11,141 nucleotides of DNA from a virus (taxonomy: Duplodnaviria; Heunggongvirae; Uroviricota; Caudoviricetes). Below, piece after piece: positions 307 to 8,630 of this stretch (positions are counted from its first letter, which is position 1; each line of letters begins with the position of its first letter). Location of the stretch: positions 1-11,141 of IMG/VR virus record IMGVR_UViG_2563366948_000006. One strand, given 5' to 3'. A program made the position numbers and the translations under genes. The notes under the pieces were generated by a model, which was not told the origin of the DNA, did no database searches, and saw only the letters and a program-made list of their open reading frames with translations.

Positions 307-1362
307 TTACTCCGGATATTTAAAAATTACGTAGGTATGCGACGGGCAGAGTTTGTTAAGCACGCACTCGACAACGGTGTCGCCCCAGATAAACAAGCGA
401 CGGTTAAGCTCCTGCTCCCAGTTCGTCACCCACGGCATCATCGTGTAGCGGACAAACTGAATCGCCTGCGCAGAAATATTGGAGAAGGTGGCTTTTTCGA
501 GGTCATTAATCATGTGCGCAGGAATATTGAAAATACCGGCAATCATTGAACGGTTCAGTTTCATCATGTCAATGATCTGAGCGTCAACTGGCGACACAGT
601 CAGTGCCTTGTAATCCAGATCGGCTGGCAGCAGCATGGTTTTGTTTTCCTGGCTGCGTAACGCCTGCGATGCCTTCTGCCACTGATCTTTAAGCCAGCCC
701 CAGCTGTCCTTATTGAGTCCGCTTTTAACGGATACTATCCCCGCCGGACGGGCATTACCGCTGAAGAAGCTTTCTGTGTATTTCTGACCGCTCATCCCCA
801 TGCCTATTGTTTCGGCATGTTGCATAATCGGACTCAGCCCCATCTTCTGATTATTACCCAGCGCACGGATGTGGATCATATCGTCGGGGCTGATCGCAAA
901 CGCCCCATATTCGTTGTACAAACCGTAGGTGTATCGACCACCAGTATTCATCAGCGTCGTTTCCCACGGCATACAGCAATCCAGGGATATGACTTCACCG
1001 CGACGATTACGTTTCACCCAGGTATACCCATTCCCCCAGCCAAGGATGTGACGTTGCTTCAGTTCGCGCCATTTGTAACTGGTTTGCCAGGTATTGGGCT
1101 CATCATGAACCAGATAAAACGCCGGATGATCGCGTGCGGGCTCAACCTTCCCATTGTGCCTGCGCATAACATGCAACGGCATCTGGGCAAGGCTGGAAGA
1201 CAGGACATAGATACAGGAATACACCGCAGCCAGTTTCATCGAAGTTTCAGGACTGACATAAACGTCTGCCCGGAACAGCCCATCAGTATCAACGGCATCC
1301 CCGGTTATCGGGGTGGAAGGATTCTCCAGTGATTTACTTCTGAACAGAGCATCAAGCAGCAC
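307..1362 (-). CDS. Phage portal protein, HK97 family; probably C-terminally truncated
   Basis: Translation contains portal-like blocks [62 protein letters not shown] and [16 protein letters not shown], and sits just downstream of TerL. Start placed at GTG 1362 (AAGGGGG-type SD upstream); the longest ORF starts at GTG 1392 and an in-frame ATG is at 1239. The protein ends about 25 aa after the [10 protein letters not shown] block, whereas HK97-family portals as I recall them continue well beyond it. Confidence 0.65.
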
Positions 1363-1513
1363 GCGTCCCCCTTCTGGCCATAGCCAGTGCACCCACCAGC
1401 AGTAAACCGCCGGACAGCATCAGAGCCGGAGCCATACCAAACTGCAGGTAAAACCCGCACGTAAGCAGGCCAAAACCAGCCAGCCCGATAACATCAGCAA
1501 TTAGTGATTTCAT
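1352..1513 (-). CDS. Small hydrophobic protein (53 aa, two predicted TM helices), function unknown
   Basis: Not in the ORF track. ATG at 1513-1511 overlaps the TerL stop (ATGA overlap); translates [53 protein letters not shown], stop at 1354-1352. Overlaps the portal start by about 11 nt. Confidence 0.4.
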
Positions 1514-3243
1514 AGAATTAAGAGAGCATCGTCCGGATCAAGAGATGAGAGGAAATCGTCGGGTTCTTTGAGCATTGCCCGACCGATCGCCATAATCAGT
1601 GCAACCGCACCATCGATTTTGTTTTCCGCCTGCTCCTTGACAGGCTTCACCACATCATCGTTACCCGGAATGGTTTTGCCGACCACGTTGCCGATACACC
1701 AGGTCATGATGGGATTGCCATCATGATGAAAGCGCCCCGATTCAATTGCCGCTTCCAGCTCTTTCATCGGGTCGGACATGTTGGTGTAGTTCTGAATGAT
1801 GGTGACGGGGTTCAGGTCTTCATCAGCAAGGTCATGTGACAGCCCGGTCGCCCCGAAGGGGTCGATGGGTGACTCGCTGACCGGGCTGATTTTGTTCGCC
1901 GCTTTGGCCTCCTCGAGGATGTAGCGATAATCCACCTCCGCACCATCGGTAACGGTCAGAACCCCCATCTCCACCCATTTCTGAAAGCGTTCGGCTGTCC
2001 GGCGATCTTCATTTTTCTCGACGCTGTACACCGTGTCATACGGTACCCAGAAGCGCGGAGCCACACTGTAGTAATGCGTTTTACCGTCAATCTCGCGGGT
2101 ATAAAGTCGCGCCATACTGTTCATATCCAGCTTACGCGCCAGGTCAAAGGCCAGGATGCACGGTTGCCCCTCGAACTGCTCAAGGGACAGTGATTTATCC
2201 TCGCAGCTCTGCCAGCTCACCAGGTTGAAATACGCCGAACGTGCCGACACCCAGATATTGAGGTGTTTTGTTTTAAAGACGTTTGCCAGACGGGCGTTAT
2301 TTTTCGCACGCTGCTGCTGACTTAACAAAAATTCGCGATAAACCGACACGCCAATATTTGGATTGGCTTTTTCCAGCACCTGCGGGTCGATCCAGTCGTC
2401 ACCTTCATCAACGGTATAGATGATCCCGAACAGTTCATCGTTAGGCACCGAGCCGTTGAGCATCTCGATGACTTCCCGCCGCTTGTCGTAGCACGGCCCC
2501 TCAATGTTGTACCCGGCGGTGGTGATGGCCCACATCAGTGGCTGACGTCGCGCCCCCATCCCGGTAAGCATTGTGGTATAAAGCGCATCGGTGGCATGCT
2601 CGTGATATTCATCAACCACGGCACAGTGGGGTGATGAACCATCACCGGGGTTGCCGATCAGCGGTTCAAACCGCGCGCCATCCTCCGGACGGTTCATGTT
2701 TGAGGCGTTAACCTCAATCCCGAACGCTTCCGTCAGCATGGGTGTGCGTTTACACATCAGTCGCGCCGGACGAAAAACTTCCCACGCCTGTTTCTCTGTC
2801 GTGGCACCGGAATACACTTCCGCGCCAAACTCGTTATCACAGGCAAAACAATACAGGGCAACACCGGCAGAGATTGCCGATTTGCCGTTCTTACGGGGGA
2901 TTTCGGTATACACCTCCCGGAAGCGGCGCAGCCGGGAGCCTTTATTGACCCAGCCAAACGCACAGCAGATCACAAAGAGCTGCCACGGCTCCAGCGTGAT
3001 GGGCATCCGTTTGAATGCCCACTCCCCCTTGGTGTGTGGCAACAGCTGAATAAATTTCGCGGCCCGTTCAGCCAGGTCCTTGTCGAAGCGGTAACGAAAC
3101 GACTTACTTTTTTCCGCCATCAGGTCATCAAGATGGCGCTGGCAGGCCTGAATCACAAACTGGCAGGCCACAATCTTTCCGCGCACGACATCACGGGCAT
3201 ACTGATTAGCAGCATTTACGTTGGGGTAAGATTTCCGGCTCAT
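1510..3243 (-). CDS. terL: Phage terminase large subunit (TerL, Terminase_1-type ATPase plus nuclease)
   Basis: 577-aa ORF, ATG at 3243 overlapping the TerS stop (ATGA). N-terminus [30 protein letters not shown] and overall length and content are typical of HK97-like large terminases; followed by the portal. Confidence 0.88.
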
Positions 3244-3734
3244 GACTCGATGATTTTCAGAAACGGGTTAGTGGCTTTCTTCTGCCCCGCCAGGCCAATC
3301 AGACGCTGGCGGCTGCTGGGGTCGAGTCCGAGCATTGCACCCGTGCTGCTCATCTCGGACTCCTGTTCTTTTTTGGCGGTCAGCTCCGGATTTTTGACCA
3401 TGCCGCCCATTGCACCGGTGATGGTGTTGCCCTGTCTGGCAATATTTTTCACGGCACGTCGCCAGAACTCATAGGCCACGCACCACCGCTCAAGTACCGC
3501 CAGGTCAGTCACGCACAGCAGGCCCTGACCGCAGAGTTCTTTGGTTGTCAGTTGCCACATGATCGTGGCGAGAGGGAGCTCTTCTTCTGTGAACCACTCC
3601 GGTGGCTCAACACCTTTGATGGGCGTAAAAACAGGTTCATCTTTATTCAGGGCTCGCTTGCCGGGGTTTCCGGCCAGCGCCTTGCGCGCCGTTGGCTTGG
3701 GGCGACGCCCGGAACGCCCCGCCGTTCCAGCCAT
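3240..3734 (-). CDS. terS: Phage terminase small subunit, P27 family
   Basis: Translation from ATG 3734 (AGGAG 8 nt upstream) begins [34 protein letters not shown], the characteristic P27-family TerS N-terminus (GRPxKPT...L.GNPGKR.LN). The track ORF begins 3 codons earlier at a GTG (3743). Confidence 0.8.
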
Positions 3735-3743
3735 ATGCGGCAC

Positions 3744-3860
3744 TCCTGGTTAAATTTCATTTTTCGCGGGTATAAAAAAACGATGGGGCGGGCAGTCCGG
3801 AAGGCGCGCGGTCGCAGAGATTTGACCTCCCCCTCCCCAGTCTGATGATGACATTAATTA
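3744..3860. other. HNH-TerS intergenic region; candidate cos (cohesive end) site
   Basis: 117-bp non-coding gap between HNH and TerS containing a GC-rich block (plus strand GGGGCGGGCAGTCCGGAAGGCGCGCGGTCGCAG, then GACCTCCCCCTCCCCAG). In HK97-type phages cos lies between the HNH gene and terS. Exact cut sites cannot be read from sequence. Confidence 0.3.
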
Positions 3861-4211
3861 TCACTTGAGCCGCTCACGCGCGGTCTTCGCTGCGTGACAC
3901 GACCAGCACAGGCTTTCAAGGTTGCTGTCTTCATCAGTACCGCCGTGGGCCTTCGCCTTGATGTGGTCCACGCAGGACGCCTGCTTCACTATCGCCTGCC
4001 GTAGATGGTTCTGACACAGCCCTTTGTCGCGCTTAAGTATCCGCTCCCGGATGACTTCCCACTTTGTTCCGTATCCTCGCTGCTGCCGTGATTGACCAGG
4101 CTTGTAGGACTTCCAGCCTTCACCTTTGTGATTTTCACAGTAGCCAGATGGGTCTGTTGTGGTGTTGCGACAGCCGCGAACACGGCAAGCCTTTGGTGTG
4201 CGCGGTGGCAT
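3861..4211 (-). CDS. HNH endonuclease (packaging-associated)
   Basis: ATG at 4211 with GGGGAG upstream; 116 aa; cysteine-rich N-terminus (CRVRGCRN...CENH) and HNH core CQNH...VDHIKAKAHGGTDEDSNLESLCWSCHAAKT; located immediately upstream of TerS. The track ORF starts 13 codons earlier at a GTG. Confidence 0.82.
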   Translation of the reverse strand: MPPRTPKACRVRGCRNTTTDPSGYCENHKGEGWKSYKPGQSRQQRGYGTKWEVIRERILKRDKGLCQNHLRQAIVKQASCVDHIKAKAHGGTDEDSNLESLCWSCHAAKTARERLK

Positions 4212-4274
4212 ATTCACTCCCCAAAAAACGTATAGCATTATCGCAGACACTTAATGAATGCCTGCTGAATGCCA

Positions 4275-4472
4275 CTAATCGTCGAGTTGCAATACACCGT
4301 GCTCAAGTGACTCTGAGTAAGCGATCAGCCCTGTGTATTCAGGGATAATCTCGCCATCATCCGCTTCGAATTCCGGGATTGTACCAGTGGTGATGGTGTA
4401 TTGGGGCTGACCATCTTCTTTCGCGAATGCTGCTAGGTCTTCAATCTGCTTAGCTGTAAGAACTACTGTCAT
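4275..4472 (-). CDS. Small highly acidic protein (65 aa), function unknown
   Basis: ATG at 4472 with GAGGT 7 nt upstream (the track start at 4478 is an ATG two codons earlier). Translation MTVVLTAKQIEDLAAFAKEDGQPQYTITTGTIPEFEADDGEIIPEYTGLIAYSESLEHGVLQLDD has about 14 D/E versus 2 K and no R. Confidence 0.55.
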   Translation of the reverse strand: MTVVLTAKQIEDLAAFAKEDGQPQYTITTGTIPEFEADDGEIIPEYTGLIAYSESLEHGVLQLDD

Positions 4473-4490
4473 GCTCATACCTCAGTTGTT

Positions 4491-4513
4491 AAAAAGCCCC
4501 GCTATTGCGAGGC
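4491..4513 (-). terminator. Rho-independent terminator downstream of the moron membrane-protein gene
   Basis: Minus-strand RNA would read GCCUCGC-AAUA-GCGGGGC followed by UUUUU (7-bp stem with one G-U pair, 4-nt loop, U-tract), 24 nt after the stop of ORF 4537..4812. Confidence 0.55.
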
Positions 4514-4536
4514 TATGATTGACTAAAGTGATGCTG

Positions 4537-4812
4537 TCAGGTGTGGGTCCAAATGAATTTAACAATCCCAATAATGCTAGCCAGAACGCCAAAACCAAAA
4601 ATAAATTGACCACATACCCCTATGATTCCCGATGCAATGGCACCGGCATTTGTCTGAGCATTTTCGTTTATGCTCGCCCCCACTAGATACATAATCAAAC
4701 CAACTATGAGAGATGCGATAATCCAATGTTCCACTGCTAATACAATTACAATGCTCAAAATATCTGCTAAACCATCACTATGACCACTCACTGCATATCC
4801 TTGCTTTGACAT
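4537..4812 (-). CDS. Small integral membrane protein (91 aa, glycine-rich TM segments) carried on an AT-rich moron
   Basis: Translation MSKQGYAVSGHSDGLADILSIVIVLAVEHWIIASLIVGLIMYLVGASINENAQTNAGAIASGIIGVCGQFIFGFGVLASIIGIVKFIWTHT is hydrophobic with GxxxG-like spacing. The surrounding roughly 4480-4880 is visibly more AT-rich than the flanking phage genes; in-frame stops lie just upstream of the ATG; a TATAAT sits about 20 nt upstream and a terminator downstream. Confidence 0.6.
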   Translation of the reverse strand: MSKQGYAVSGHSDGLADILSIVIVLAVEHWIIASLIVGLIMYLVGASINENAQTNAGAIASGIIGVCGQFIFGFGVLASIIGIVKFIWTHT

Positions 4813-4878
4813 TTGAAAAATTCATCACTGGATTATAATTGTTTACACCCTTCATAGTCGTTCGAATATGATAAAAAA

Positions 4879-5415
4879 TCAATTGTGGGGGATAGCGTTA
4901 TTTGACTCTCTCAACGAGTCGTAAATACGTTCACACGTCATCCCGGCGGTGTAGCGTTCGTCAGCGATTCCAGCATAACGTTTAGCTTCTGCTGCAATAT
5001 CTCCGAGCATGTCGGCGAACATTCCGGCGTCGGCGTCGGTTGTTTTGCTTCGGACGGCAGCGGCAAGATCAGCGGTGTGCTTTGCGGCGTCCAGGCGTGC
5101 GGCAAGCTTTGTTGCTTCGGTACGCAACTGGCTAACAGTGGCAGACAGGCCAGCAGCAGTGGCAGCAGATTTAGCGGCTTGTGCTTGTGCATCTTTTACA
5201 GCCTCATCACGGGCAATTATGCGCCCTTGTTCAATCCAGCGTGCGGCAGTCTGCGCGTTCGCTTCCTGTGAAGATTCCATGCTATTGTGGTCAGCCCACT
5301 TCTTTTGCCAGCCCCGCTCACTCCAGATGTTCCCGGCAAGAAATGCACCAGCCAACATCAGCAAAACAATGATTGTTTTCCACCGCGCCTGAACAAAAGC
5401 AAAGACCGCTGTCAT
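4879..5415 (-). CDS. Rz: Rz-like i-spanin (inner-membrane spanin subunit)
   Basis: ATG at 5415 overlaps the endolysin stop (ATGA). N-terminal TM helix ([19 protein letters not shown]) followed by an Ala/Gln/Lys-rich coiled-coil-like periplasmic domain; position right after the endolysin; contains an embedded lipoprotein ORF. Confidence 0.72.
4938..5192 (-). CDS. Rz1: Rz1-like o-spanin (outer-membrane lipoprotein), embedded in Rz in another frame
   Basis: ATG at 5192; [23 protein letters not shown] carries a signal peptide with lipobox (LLAS-C), followed by a proline-rich mature region; wholly inside the Rz coding region, the classical embedded arrangement. Confidence 0.65.
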
Positions 5416-6029
5416 ACCAGCAACGCCGCCCGCGCTTTGTTATAACGACTATTTCTGTCAGCCAGTCCATTCTGGCCACCGTTGATGATCTGCGTTACAC
5501 GGACAACATCACCTGAATACATCAGACAACCACGTAATGTGAAATACCATGCAGCAGAACGGGCTGCATGTTTCTCCTGTGTCAGCAACTCTGGTGTGCT
5601 GATCAGATCCAACTTCAGCGCCGCACCGCATTTGGCGTAGTTCTCGCGGCCGGTGATTTGAAGCAGGCCACGACCGCGATATTTCCAGCCGTCACCCTGG
5701 CTGTTATTCCCCATGCGGTCACCATAAACCAGATTGGCTATTTGCGGCTGGTGGGCTACCTGCTTACCATCGACACGCCCCAGCATTTCACACTGATAAG
5801 GCGTCAGGCGTTTACTAAAGGTTTTCTTCAGCCCGTCTACCGAGTAGTTGAAGCTTTCCACCAGCGAGGTAAAACCAGCAGATTCATGCCCAACTTGTGC
5901 AATGAACATGGCCTGATCGTTAACTGCTGTGATTCCAAACTCTTTCATTGCAGCATCAATGTGCGGAAACCAGCGCGCAGCCAGCCCGGCGCTAATACCA
6001 GCCGCCTTTTGAAATAATTGTTGGTTCAT
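5412..6029 (-). CDS. Endolysin, glycoside hydrolase family 19 (chitinase-like lysozyme)
   Basis: 205 aa with GH19-type blocks [35 protein letters not shown] and AAWYFTL; start ATG overlaps the upstream holin stop (TAATG); followed by Rz/Rz1. Confidence 0.85.
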
Positions 6030-6310: not shown

Positions 6311-6626
6311 CTGAACCTCCCCGGCGCGTTATGAGCGCCACCAGCGAGCCGATATCCTGATTATTCAGGAACGTCAGGATTTTAACGGCTAAAGCAGAGA
6401 CGATTACGGCACCAATAGCATCCAGAGGTTTATCACTGTATCCGGTCAAGTGCGCCAGCTTGGAGCCAACCAACCCAGAGCAAAGGATCCCGGCAATATA
6501 TGACACGATAAAATATGCCAGTCGGCGCGATGCACTCAGATCTGCTGCTGTTGCTATGTAGAATACCGTCCTTTTTACAAAACAGAGAAGAGCATCACCG
6601 GACGACGGGCTCATAACCCAATCCAT
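6297..6626 (-). CDS. Holin-like membrane protein (start uncertain: GTG 6641, ATG 6626 or ATG 6614)
   Basis: At least two TM segments (LAYFIVSYIAGILCSGLVG, LDAIGAVIVSALAVKILTFL) and a charged C-terminal tail QDIGSLVALITRRGGSGGAK that resembles, from recall, the C-terminus of lambda S; two closely spaced in-frame Met codons (MDWVMSPSS) could allow a dual-start arrangement. No strong SD at any candidate start. Confidence 0.5.
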   Translation of the reverse strand: MDWVMSPSSGDALLCFVKRTVFYIATAADLSASRRLAYFIVSYIAGILCSGLVGSKLAHLTGYSDKPLDAIGAVIVSALAVKILTFLNNQDIGSLVALITRRGGSGGAK

Positions 6627-6665
6627 CCGGGCGGCTGCCACCGCAGGTGTTCTTCTCTGTTTTGT
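6577..6665. repeat. 18-bp inverted repeat (17/18 match) separated by 53 bp at the lysis / early-operon junction
   Basis: Plus strand 6577-6594 ACAAAACAGAGAAGAGCA; the reverse complement of 6648-6665 is ACAAAACAGAGAAGAACA (15 bp perfect core). Left arm lies in the 5' end of the holin-like ORF, right arm in the divergent intergenic region upstream of yfdP. Confidence 0.7.
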
Positions 6666-6713
6666 GGAGAAACTAATCGGCCTTGCAGGGTCGATATGAT
6701 GAGGAGCAGCAAA

Positions 6714-7076
6714 ATGGCTAGCGAACGCAGTACTGATGTGCAGGCATTTATCGGGGAGCTGGACGGCGGCGTATTTGAAACCAAAATCGGCGCAGTTCTC
6801 AGTGAAGTCGCTTCCGGTGTGATGAACACGAAAACCAAAGGTAAGGTCTCACTCAACCTGGAAATCGAACCATTTGATGAGAACCGTGTGAAAATCAAAC
6901 ACAAACTCTCATATGTTCGCCCGACTAACCGCGGGAAAATTTCCGAAGAAGACACCACCGAAACGCCGATGTATGTCAATCGCGGTGGTCGCCTGACTAT
7001 TCTGCAGGAAGACCAGGGACAGTTACTGACTCTTGCCGGTGAACCTGACGGAAAACTCCGCGCAGCAGGTCGTTAA
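6714..7076 (+). CDS. yfdP: YfdP-like conserved prophage early protein (120 aa), function unknown
   Basis: ATG at 6714 with GAGGAG upstream gives 120 aa (MASERSTDVQAFIGELDGG...); first gene of a same-strand operon whose sizes (120, 274, 178, 120 aa) and order match E. coli K-12 KplE1 yfdP-yfdQ-yfdR-yfdS as I recall them. Confidence 0.55.
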   Translation: MASERSTDVQAFIGELDGGVFETKIGAVLSEVASGVMNTKTKGKVSLNLEIEPFDENRVKIKHKLSYVRPTNRGKISEEDTTETPMYVNRGGRLTILQEDQGQLLTLAGEPDGKLRAAGR

Positions 7077-7141
7077 TATCGTTTTTAATTAACTGATTAT
7101 TTATCTCATCACTGAATATCTTTATATAGTGAGGACTTATT

Positions 7142-7966
7142 ATGTCTCAGAACTTAGACGCAACCGCAATTAATCAAATCCATGCCCTTATTTCTGCTCA
7201 GGGTGTTAATGAAATTATCAGTAAGATTGGTGCCGATGCTGTGGCATTGCCTGAGAATTTCCGCATTCATGATCTGGAAAAATTTAATTTAAATCGCTTC
7301 CGTTTCCGTGGTGCGCTTTCCACTGCCAGCATCGATGACTTTACCCGTTATTCTAAAGATCTTGCAGATGAAGGCACCCGCTGCTTTATCGATGCTGATA
7401 ATATGCGTGCCGTCAGTGTGCTTAACCTGGGTACTATTGATGAACCAGGTCACGCAGATAACACCGCCACACTCAAACTGAAAAAGACAGCACCGTTCTC
7501 TGCTCTGTTGTCTGTTAACGGCGAGCGTAACTCCCAGAAGTCACTGGCAGAATGGATTGAAGACTGGGCCGACTATCTTGTGGGCTTTGATGCTAATGGT
7601 GACGCTATTCAGGCAACAAAAGCGGCTGCGGCTGTCCGTAAAATCACGATTGAAGCAAACCAGACCGCTGATTTTGAAGATAATGACTTCAGCGGCAAAC
7701 GCTCCCTGATGGAGTCTGTCGAAGCGAAGACCAAAGACATTATGCCAGTGGCATTTGAATTTAAATGCGTTCCGTTTGAAGGTCTGAAAGAACGTCCGTT
7801 TAAATTACGCCTCAGTATTATCACTGGCGATCGTCCTGTACTGGTTCTGCGCATTATTCAGCTGGAGGCGGTGCAGGAAGAAATGGCTAACGAATTTCGT
7901 GATCTGCTTGTTGAGAAATTCAAGGACAGCAAAGTAGAAACCTTTATTGGTACTTTCACCGCCTGA
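7142..7966 (+). CDS. yfdQ: YfdQ-like protein (DUF2303-type, 274 aa), function unknown
   Basis: ATG at 7142 with GAGGA 7 nt upstream; 274 aa beginning [20 protein letters not shown]; size and position match K-12 YfdQ from recall. Confidence 0.6.
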
Positions 7967-7978
7967 TTTCATTACTGC

Positions 7979-8000
7979 AAATGCCCCTGCGGGGGCATTT
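7979..8000 (+). terminator. Perfect 9-bp stem-loop between yfdQ and yfdR (possible partial terminator or attenuator)
   Basis: AAATGCCCC-TGCG-GGGGCATTT starts 13 nt after the yfdQ stop; GC core with an AU-rich 3' side (AUUUAU) but no long U-tract. Confidence 0.35.
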
Positions 8001-8093
8001 ATGGAAACGTAATTTACTCAATAATCGCCGGATGGTGAGGGATTCTTTTTACCAGAATTCAGCGCGGTGCAGCGCATATACGTGGAGAACAAA

Positions 8094-8630
8094 ATGTCAT
8101 TTATTAAAACTTTTTCCGGGAAGCATTTTTATTATGACAGGATAAATAAAGACGACATCGATATTAACGATATCGCGGTTTCCCTTTCAAATATCTGTCG
8201 CTTTGCCGGTCATCTTTCGCACTTCTACAGCGTCGCCCAACATGCGGTTCTTTGCAGCCAGCTGGTGCCGCAGGAATTTGCTTTTGAAGCGTTAATGCAT
8301 GATGCAACAGAAGCGTATTGCCAAGACATCCCCGCACCACTGAAACGACTTCTTCCTGACTATAAACGGATGGAAGAAAAAATAGACGCCGTAATCCGTG
8401 AGAAATACGGGTTACCTCCTGTTATGAGCACGCCAGTGAAATATGCCGATCTCATCATGCTGGCAACCGAACGCCGCGATCTCGGGCTTGATGATGGCTC
8501 TTTCTGGCCTGTGCTGGAAGGTATCCCGGCAACAGAGATGTTCAACGTGATTCCACTGGCTCCAGGCCATGCCTACGGGATGTTTATGGAACGCTTTAAC
8601 GAATTATCGGAGTTACGCAAATGCGCATGA
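8094..8630 (+). CDS. yfdR: HD-domain phosphohydrolase, YfdR-like (178 aa)
   Basis: ATG at 8094 with GGAGAA upstream gives 178 aa; HD-domain metal-binding signature visible (GHLSHFYSVAQH ... LMHDATEAY). The track ORF starts 9 codons earlier at 8067. Confidence 0.7.
   Translation: MSFIKTFSGKHFYYDRINKDDIDINDIAVSLSNICRFAGHLSHFYSVAQHAVLCSQLVPQEFAFEALMHDATEAYCQDIPAPLKRLLPDYKRMEEKIDAVIREKYGLPPVMSTPVKYADLIMLATERRDLGLDDGSFWPVLEGIPATEMFNVIPLAPGHAYGMFMERFNELSELRKCA

Follow-up and report, generated by a model that had tools for sequence, protein, structure and literature searches.

In classical DNA mimics such as Ocr, ArdA and gp5.9 of phage T7, arrays of carboxylates resemble the backbone of DNA and inhibit a DNA-binding defence protein, which may be a restriction enzyme, RecBCD or another. 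Two of them, Ocr and ArdA, are dimers. The genes for all three are early genes or lie in the leading regions of plasmids, and they are expressed when DNA enters the cell. Sliding clamps are a second group of proteins relevant to the gene described here. To our knowledge, they all have 4 or 6 units fused in one chain, and we know of none that exists as a free-standing half-domain. The E. coli beta-clamp dimer is extremely stable. Phage proteins that engage clamps include Gp168 of Twort, a small beta-clamp inhibitor whose target is the host sliding clamp (PMC8565349), and C of Mu, a further precedent for such contact (PMC12867686). The gene itself belongs to a family, phrog_9518, that is already catalogued and is unstudied; literature searches on its accessions, its phrog id and N15 gp56, and on the topics of clamp inhibitors and DNA mimics, turned up no publication on any member. 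What is new here is a predicted half-clamp-domain architecture and a role as the border of a cargo hotspot.

The window analysed is an 11,141 nt stretch of viral DNA (IMG/VR record IMGVR_UViG_2563366948_000006), and the gene lies on its minus strand at nt 4275–4472 (including the stop codon), as supported by ORF, charge, PGAP CDS, PHROG match and dN/dS. It encodes 65 residues (MTVVLTAKQIEDLAAFAKEDGQPQYTITTGTIPEFEADDGEIIPEYTGLIAYSESLEHGVLQLDD), beginning MTVVLTAKQ and ending VLQLDD, with a mass of 7.1 kDa, 14 D/E, 2 K/R and 1 H, a pI of 4.05 and a charge of about −12.4 at pH 7. The ORF is the extreme charge outlier of the window, with a net acidic fraction of 0.18 compared with 0.05 for the second-ranked ORF, and none of 5,927 ORFs (at least 60 aa) in 200 shuffled windows attained that value. 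Neither a signal peptide nor a transmembrane segment could be seen on direct reading of the protein sequence. The GC content of the gene (48%) is between that of the neighbouring moron (41%) and those of the core late genes (51–59%). A Shine–Dalgarno GAGG (nt 4480–4483, minus strand) stands 7 nt ahead of the ATG at nt 4472, and the motif (AACAACTGAGG) is kept in nearly all relatives. The initial annotation had described a strongly acidic protein with a good Shine–Dalgarno sequence, beside a moron and upstream of HNH and packaging genes, and this description is confirmed. In E. coli ECZP248, which carries identical prophage DNA, PGAP calls the same 65 aa CDS (WP_000219369.1, 'hypothetical protein'). 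An alternative upstream ATG (nt 4476–4478, minus strand), only 1 nt after GAGG, would give a 67 aa form (MSM...). In some relatives this codon has changed to ATA and then comes an in-frame TAA stop, while in 13 other loci the codon equivalent to that at 4472 is ATT or GTT, so that the upstream ATG must be the start there.

Selection on the gene was assessed with 54 distinct DNA alleles, which represent 79 full-length copies taken from IMG/VR loci. Among these alleles, every one of the 65 third codon positions was variable, as were 30 first and 16 second positions; mean dN was 0.044 and mean dS 0.84, a ratio of about 0.05. Since the ratio is this low and every third position varies, the ORF is counted as a real gene, and it is under strong purifying selection. 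Stops are present in the other five frames. The degree of conservation is strict for an accessory phage gene. That the gene is accessory is seen from its distribution: it is carried by 51 of 5,426 complete E. coli genomes (about 1%), always in single copy, the carriers including a lambdoid prophage of strain Nissle 1917.

The protein matches phrog_9518 ('unknown function') from end to end (E = 1.7e-40; residues 2–67 against profile positions 1–66 of 66). Relatives found by tBLASTn include gp53 of Enterobacteria phage mEp390 (YP_007112470, 95% identity) and gp56 of Escherichia phage N15 (NP_046952, 54% identity), and others occur in phage SaltyDalty and Klebsiella phage ST405-OXA48phi1.3. About 250–500 family clusters were recovered in three large protein searches. 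Those members that are named in their sources are annotated as 'hypothetical' or phage protein, and all come from Enterobacterales (Escherichia, Citrobacter, Klebsiella, Enterobacter, Kluyvera, Leclercia, Serratia, Pectobacterium, Brenneria, Morganella, Providencia and Salmonella). The family is confined to temperate phages of this order. Across 54 representatives at no more than 80% identity, the net charge ranges from −3 to −13, with a median of −8; at least 72% of the representatives have an acidic residue at each of five to six positions. The invariant residues are Y25, Y46, G48 and L49, together with a hydrophobic core. About one in three representatives, N15 gp56 among them, are without FEADDGE, the most acidic loop.

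No Pfam, NCBIfam or PADLOC family matched the acidic protein, and no relative was found in the PDB by sequence or profile. The protein carries no enzymatic or structural-family signature. Several weak or composite matches were rejected. Four SprB-type giant proteins (2,600–5,000 aa, matching at up to 1e-20) are not relatives, and their scores are a spurious summation, because phmmer showed about 20 additive matches of 4–9 bits each to C-x-G-x-DG repeats. Single matches to Pfam Commissureless (E = 0.064), the yeast glutathione S-transferase Gtt2 (E = 0.1), cadherin-3 (E = 0.12) and, for one member, DUF7336 (E = 0.025) are below any threshold. The domain also occurs fused to N-terminal partners (phrog_18255, phrog_11851 and a conserved, unnamed 55 aa domain), and carries C-terminal extensions of 40–95 aa in Mu-like phages of Salmonella and relatives. 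The fused forms are P0124, P0126, P0137/P0140/P0159 and P0148/P0154/P0164, some of which may be gene-calling artefacts. Their use as Rosetta stones was rejected, the partners and C-terminal extensions being without a Pfam family or known function, and the C-terminal extension of the Mu-like 157 aa form was ruled out as being the neighbouring 82 aa ORF.

The genomic position was surveyed in 80 viral loci plus phage and prophage records, and the acidic gene is co-directional with the late operon in every locus examined. The HNH and membrane-protein genes that flank it in the window are likewise on the minus strand. Downstream are an HNH endonuclease gene (nt 3861–4211), which is not constant across relatives, terS, encoding a P27-family small terminase (nt 3240–3743), and terL, encoding the large terminase (nt 1510–3243), with the portal gene beyond. 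Upstream lies a gene for a 91 aa membrane protein (nt 4537–4812; phrog_28582, unknown function; GC 41%), which stands between the Rz gene and a hairpin described below, and is preceded by a DUF2514 Rz-type spanin gene, a GH19 endolysin gene and two holin genes. Only 8 of about 80 related loci have the phrog_28582 gene, which carries a perfect TATAAT about 35 nt before its start and fits the pattern of a moron; as such it would use the conserved hairpin as its terminator. An 84 aa ORF (nt 4938–5192, minus strand) is situated out of frame within the DUF2514 Rz gene. Its lipobox (LASC) and a mature part rich in proline give it the look of an Rz1-type o-spanin; PGAP leaves it unannotated in the near-identical ECZP248 record.

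Among the related loci, the upstream neighbour is almost always the end of a lysis cassette, with a DUF2514 spanin in 32 loci and an endolysin in 17 or more, among them a GH19 endolysin in 17; the remaining upstream endolysins are lambda R-like, SAR, GH108 or M15. The downstream neighbour is hypervariable, and may be HNH, TerS, a cold-shock protein, DUF2513 or one of many orphans on either strand. Terminase type varies too: P27 with HNH in the window, a DUF1441 protein with a large-subunit family terminase in Nissle, and Terminase_2 in others. In Mu-like phages the gene lies between DUF1804 and TerL. Its position between lysis and packaging genes is thus kept in three unrelated architectures (lambdoid, N15-like and Mu-like), and it is independent of both lysis type and packaging type. 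Endolysin, spanin and terminase types vary, as do the downstream genes, which points to a partner that lies outside all of them. Between the lysis and terminase genes there is a cargo hotspot, and the gene forms its upstream border.

The cargo that follows the gene is often concerned with DNA modification. In mEp390 (L002, nt 725–3306) two glycosyltransferase genes, with HNH genes, come just after it; in N15 (L003, nt 4195–5503) it is followed by a DUF4406/deoxyribosyltransferase-like gene and Dcm; and in a further locus (L088, nt 3595–5239) by ParB_N and a TAGT/DpdA-like gene. Such cargo suggests a late-operon hotspot for genome-protection genes. Copies of the acidic gene were also found on plasmids. 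The intact ones are carried only by N15-like plasmid prophages of 38–47 kb. IncF-type plasmids of Klebsiella and Enterobacter hold 26 decayed, unannotated copies, which are start-less and stop-containing. They lie, as in L094 (nt 6990–7186; Klebsiella IncFIB/IncFII plasmid NZ_CP073792.1), between mazEF and a cluster of TonB-like, Exc2 lipoprotein and cloacin-immunity genes; the plasmids are large and conjugative. A link to plasmid anti-defence islands was rejected, as the IncF-type copies are pseudogenes; they stand outside the leading regions.

Immediately in front of the gene is a GC-rich hairpin (AGCCTCGC-AATA-GCGGGGCT, followed by T5; nt 4491–4514, minus strand) that resembles an intrinsic terminator, and it accompanies the gene in the majority of lambdoid and N15 loci. 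Whatever stands further upstream, it is retained in about 44 of the 49 distinct upstream sequences. The window hairpin has a predicted dG of −21.6 kcal/mol (z = −4.7), and 92% of the stem cells in the alignment are paired. Compensatory (double-sided) changes were absent, and covariation was no better than in shuffles, so that the hairpin is supported by conservation and energy. It was not called by a simple terminator scan, and Rfam gave no match in the region. In N15 the same stem and loop are annotated as a putative rho-independent terminator. The hairpin sequence (GCCTCGCAATAGCGGGGC; nt 4491–4514, minus strand) is identical there (L003, nt 3944–3967) despite a protein identity of 54%, so that the hairpin exceeds the gene in conservation; it may mark a recombination boundary, or its role may depend on sequence.

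No promoter-like site was found on the minus strand, and the 18 nt between the T run and the ATG leave no room for one. Expression would therefore need read-through of the antiterminated late transcript, which would class the gene as neither moron nor early. The hairpin is missing from three close relatives, so expression confined to the late phase is not a general rule, and some variants lose the T run. In the window only, the predicted RNA fold of nt 4473–4530 (minus strand) pairs ACUUUAGU, at the 3' end of the moron, with ACUGAGGU. This pairing would occlude the Shine–Dalgarno sequence of the acidic gene; its upstream arm is unconserved in other loci.

The prophage in the window is an e14-like deletion remnant. 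Compared with the intact ECZP248 prophage (L001), about 9 kb have been deleted at about nt 6566 (6564–6676), removing the Q antiterminator, DUF968, KilA-N, RusA, methylase, replication and immunity genes. The deletion also fuses the truncated (outer) holin gene to the yfdP side, with loss of the late promoter region. Its junction occurs in none of the 5,426 complete E. coli genomes searched. A second loss, left of about nt 391–1587, has taken the head and tail genes; the portal gene is truncated, and left of it the sequence joins an stfP/ymfQ-like segment (nt 1–391). Because Q and the late promoter region have been lost, the acidic gene, while intact, is probably silent in the window and carried as an unexpressed passenger. 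Just upstream of yfdR (nt 7958–8137, plus strand), a sub-threshold Rfam match to the sRNA STnc100 (19.8 bits, E = 0.82; the gathering score is 47) is probably due to chance.

The structure of the acidic protein was modelled with AlphaFold2, using shallow alignments (19–25 sequences; the alignment did not include N15 gp56). The predicted topology (monomer model pLDDT 81.8) is beta1 (residues 2–6), a helix (7–20), beta2 (25–32), an acidic hairpin loop (34–43), beta3 (46–52) and beta4 (60–63), of which beta1 forms in the tandem model only. The latter is based on P0166, which like P0167 (both 143 aa) is a natural tandem duplication of the domain at an unchanged genomic position. Five concordant models of P0166 (pLDDT 80, pTM 0.73) show the topology (b-a-b-b-b)x2, the pseudo-twofold domain that is characteristic of sliding clamps. 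Clamps were also enriched among the weak structural matches to the monomer model, making up 12 of the top 60. The models suggest that a pair of copies forms an alpha/beta domain of pseudo-twofold symmetry, built like one domain of a sliding clamp, and we infer that the 65 aa protein is a half-domain which would work as a homodimer. AlphaFold may, however, be assembling a b-a-b-b-b repeat the only way it knows.

The resemblance claimed is one of predicted fold, not of homology or membership in the clamp family. No Pfam clamp family (DNA_pol3_beta 1–3, PCNA_N/C) matched the protein sequence. When the family profile was compared with an alignment of enterobacterial DnaN proteins (hhalign), the probability was 0.09%, and homology to DnaN was rejected on this comparison. 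The clamp-binding motif QL[SD]LF is fitted neither by QIEDLAAF in the helix nor by the C-terminal LQLDD, as read directly from the sequence. The basic helices that line the channel of clamps are not reproduced: at five exposed helix sites, 39–93% of family residues are acidic, and a single position, at which the window protein has E11, is commonly basic (74% K/R). The helix of the window protein carries K8 and K18 as against E11, D12, E19 and D20.

The best explanation of these results, although a tentative one, is that the protein is a late-expressed, dimeric, protein-binding decoy or inhibitor, the class of its partner being guessed from charge and timing. The small cytoplasmic product of an accessory late gene, built as one beta-alpha-beta-beta-beta unit, would dimerise and act stoichiometrically, late in infection. 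The dimer would bind a conserved, positively charged, DNA-associated protein, possibly one that interacts with the clamp, belonging to the host or to a competing element. It would act while the DNA is being modified and packaged, with the clamp-like dimeric domain serving as scaffold. A stoichiometric, protein-binding role is favoured because the protein is small, soluble, acidic and folded, lacks a catalytic signature, and is encoded by an accessory, late and module-independent gene restricted to one host order. It is presumably not an enzyme or a virion part; nor is it likely to be a DNA-encircling clamp, because the exposed face of its helix is acidic.

The initial annotation had proposed a DNA mimic or anti-defence protein, to be judged by comparing a predicted structure with DNA-mimic folds and to be abandoned if homology searches placed it in a structural or assembly family. 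Those searches made no such assignment. The structure prediction returned no known-mimic fold and gave the clamp-like alpha/beta domain instead. The idea as a whole is neither supported nor refuted: the conserved charge and accessory status speak for it, while the late placement, the dispensable acidic loop and the lack of a match to known mimics speak against its classical form. As the specific proposal of a classical mimic like Ocr, ArdA or gp5.9, we consider it unlikely. It would account for a net charge of −12 in 65 aa, for an acidity conserved family-wide, for the accessory distribution and for the DNA-modifying nature of the adjoining cargo in N15, mEp390 and L088, and the dimer that the models make plausible would be shared with Ocr and ArdA. 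Nevertheless, the protein resembles no known mimic in sequence or fold: Pfam Ocr, ArdA and Acr families gave no match to the window protein (E ≤ 1) or to any of 25 family members (E ≤ 0.1), and no defence or anti-defence model matched the acidic protein. Anti-restriction is needed at DNA entry, yet the gene has a late-operon site, its start codon 18 nt behind a terminator-like hairpin, and not an early or leading-region one. The FEADDGE loop is deleted in many members, and the invariant residues are aromatic or hydrophobic rather than acidic.

A further alternative, a little less probable again, takes the predicted clamp-domain architecture at face value. The dimer would either use its free edge strands to pair with DnaN at an opened interface or sequester clamp-binding proteins. 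Clamp loading would thereby be stopped, or concatemeric DNA would be stripped of its clamps ahead of packaging. The strong conservation of the edge strand GVLQL and of the N-terminal strand would be explained, as would the late timing beside packaging genes, the phages concerned all relying on host Pol III for replication, and the Twort and Mu proteins provide phage precedents for engaging the clamp. The argument is a purely structural analogy, however, and there is no sequence similarity to DnaN. The C-terminus, QLDD, is without the L-F of the clamp-binding motif, and an opened interface is difficult to reconcile with how stable the beta dimer is.

The same architecture could also be read as a self-assembling ring, in which six dimers (twelve subunits) form a clamp-like toroid that tracks on or threads phage DNA and is a platform for terminase, HNH or DNA-modifying enzymes. 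A clamp ring has six domains, to one of which a predicted dimer would correspond; the edge strands are conserved and free; and the gene is positioned between DNA-modification cargo and terminase genes. We regard the ring as improbable, given that the surface of the helix is mostly acidic, the opposite of a basic clamp interior, that the types of terminase and cargo vary, and that no clamp-loader-like gene was found in the window or related loci. The broader statement that phrog_9518 is a free-standing, homodimerising half clamp domain of 55–65 residues (b-a-b-b-b), which either forms the 12-subunit ring from six dimers or as a domain mimic interferes late with the host beta-clamp, is doubtful. 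The least probable alternative, a lysis regulator encoded by the last gene of the lysis cassette and influencing, for example, the timing of endolysin or spanin, would suit the nearly constant lysis-cassette end upstream, but it is very hard to sustain for a cytoplasmic acidic protein that is found beside four or more unrelated cassette types (GH19, lambda R-like, SAR lysozyme, GH108, M15), is separated from Rz by a terminator-like hairpin, and in Mu-like phages has the DUF1804 gene and another ORF intervening.

As an acidic phage ORFan, the gene is ordinary. It is made noteworthy by its strict conservation (dN/dS 0.05 at a dS of about 0.8), its fixed position in three architectures and the half-clamp prediction. 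If the prediction is right, the family would be the smallest known clamp-fold unit, and could represent a new route for temperate phages to the replication or packaging machinery of the host, or a new scaffold for acidic inhibitors; if the ring were true, it would be an extant model of the presumed ancestral clamp. The hotspot edge is a useful landmark in the search for accessory, defence and anti-defence genes of enterobacterial prophages, that of the probiotic strain Nissle 1917 included.

Compared with known systems, the decoy or inhibitor proposed here is like Ocr (T7 gp0.3), ArdA and gp5.9 of T7 in being small, very acidic, accessory and encoded by a phage or mobile genetic element. They are early-expressed, whereas the acidic gene stands in a late operon behind a hairpin, and its product has no likeness to them in sequence or fold and does not conserve its most acidic loop. 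With Twort Gp168 it shares small size and a phage origin, and Gp168 is the precedent for the clamp-targeting alternative. Sliding clamps (E. coli beta/DnaN, PCNA, T4 gp45, 9-1-1 and herpesvirus UL44) have 4 or 6 motifs per chain and a basic inner surface, while the acidic protein is a single predicted half-domain of 65 aa whose exposed helix face is acidic. Lambdoid morons, the promoter-gene-terminator cassettes, are likewise accessory genes in the variable region between lysis and head genes. A moron has its own promoter upstream and its terminator downstream; the acidic gene has the terminator-like hairpin in front, no space for a promoter, and a position that is kept in three phage types. 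The closest counterparts remain the other members of phrog_9518, mEp390 gp53, N15 gp56 and WP_000219369.1. They do not differ from it in kind, the N15-type members being without the FEADDGE loop, and as full-length homologues they have the post-spanin position and the upstream hairpin in common.
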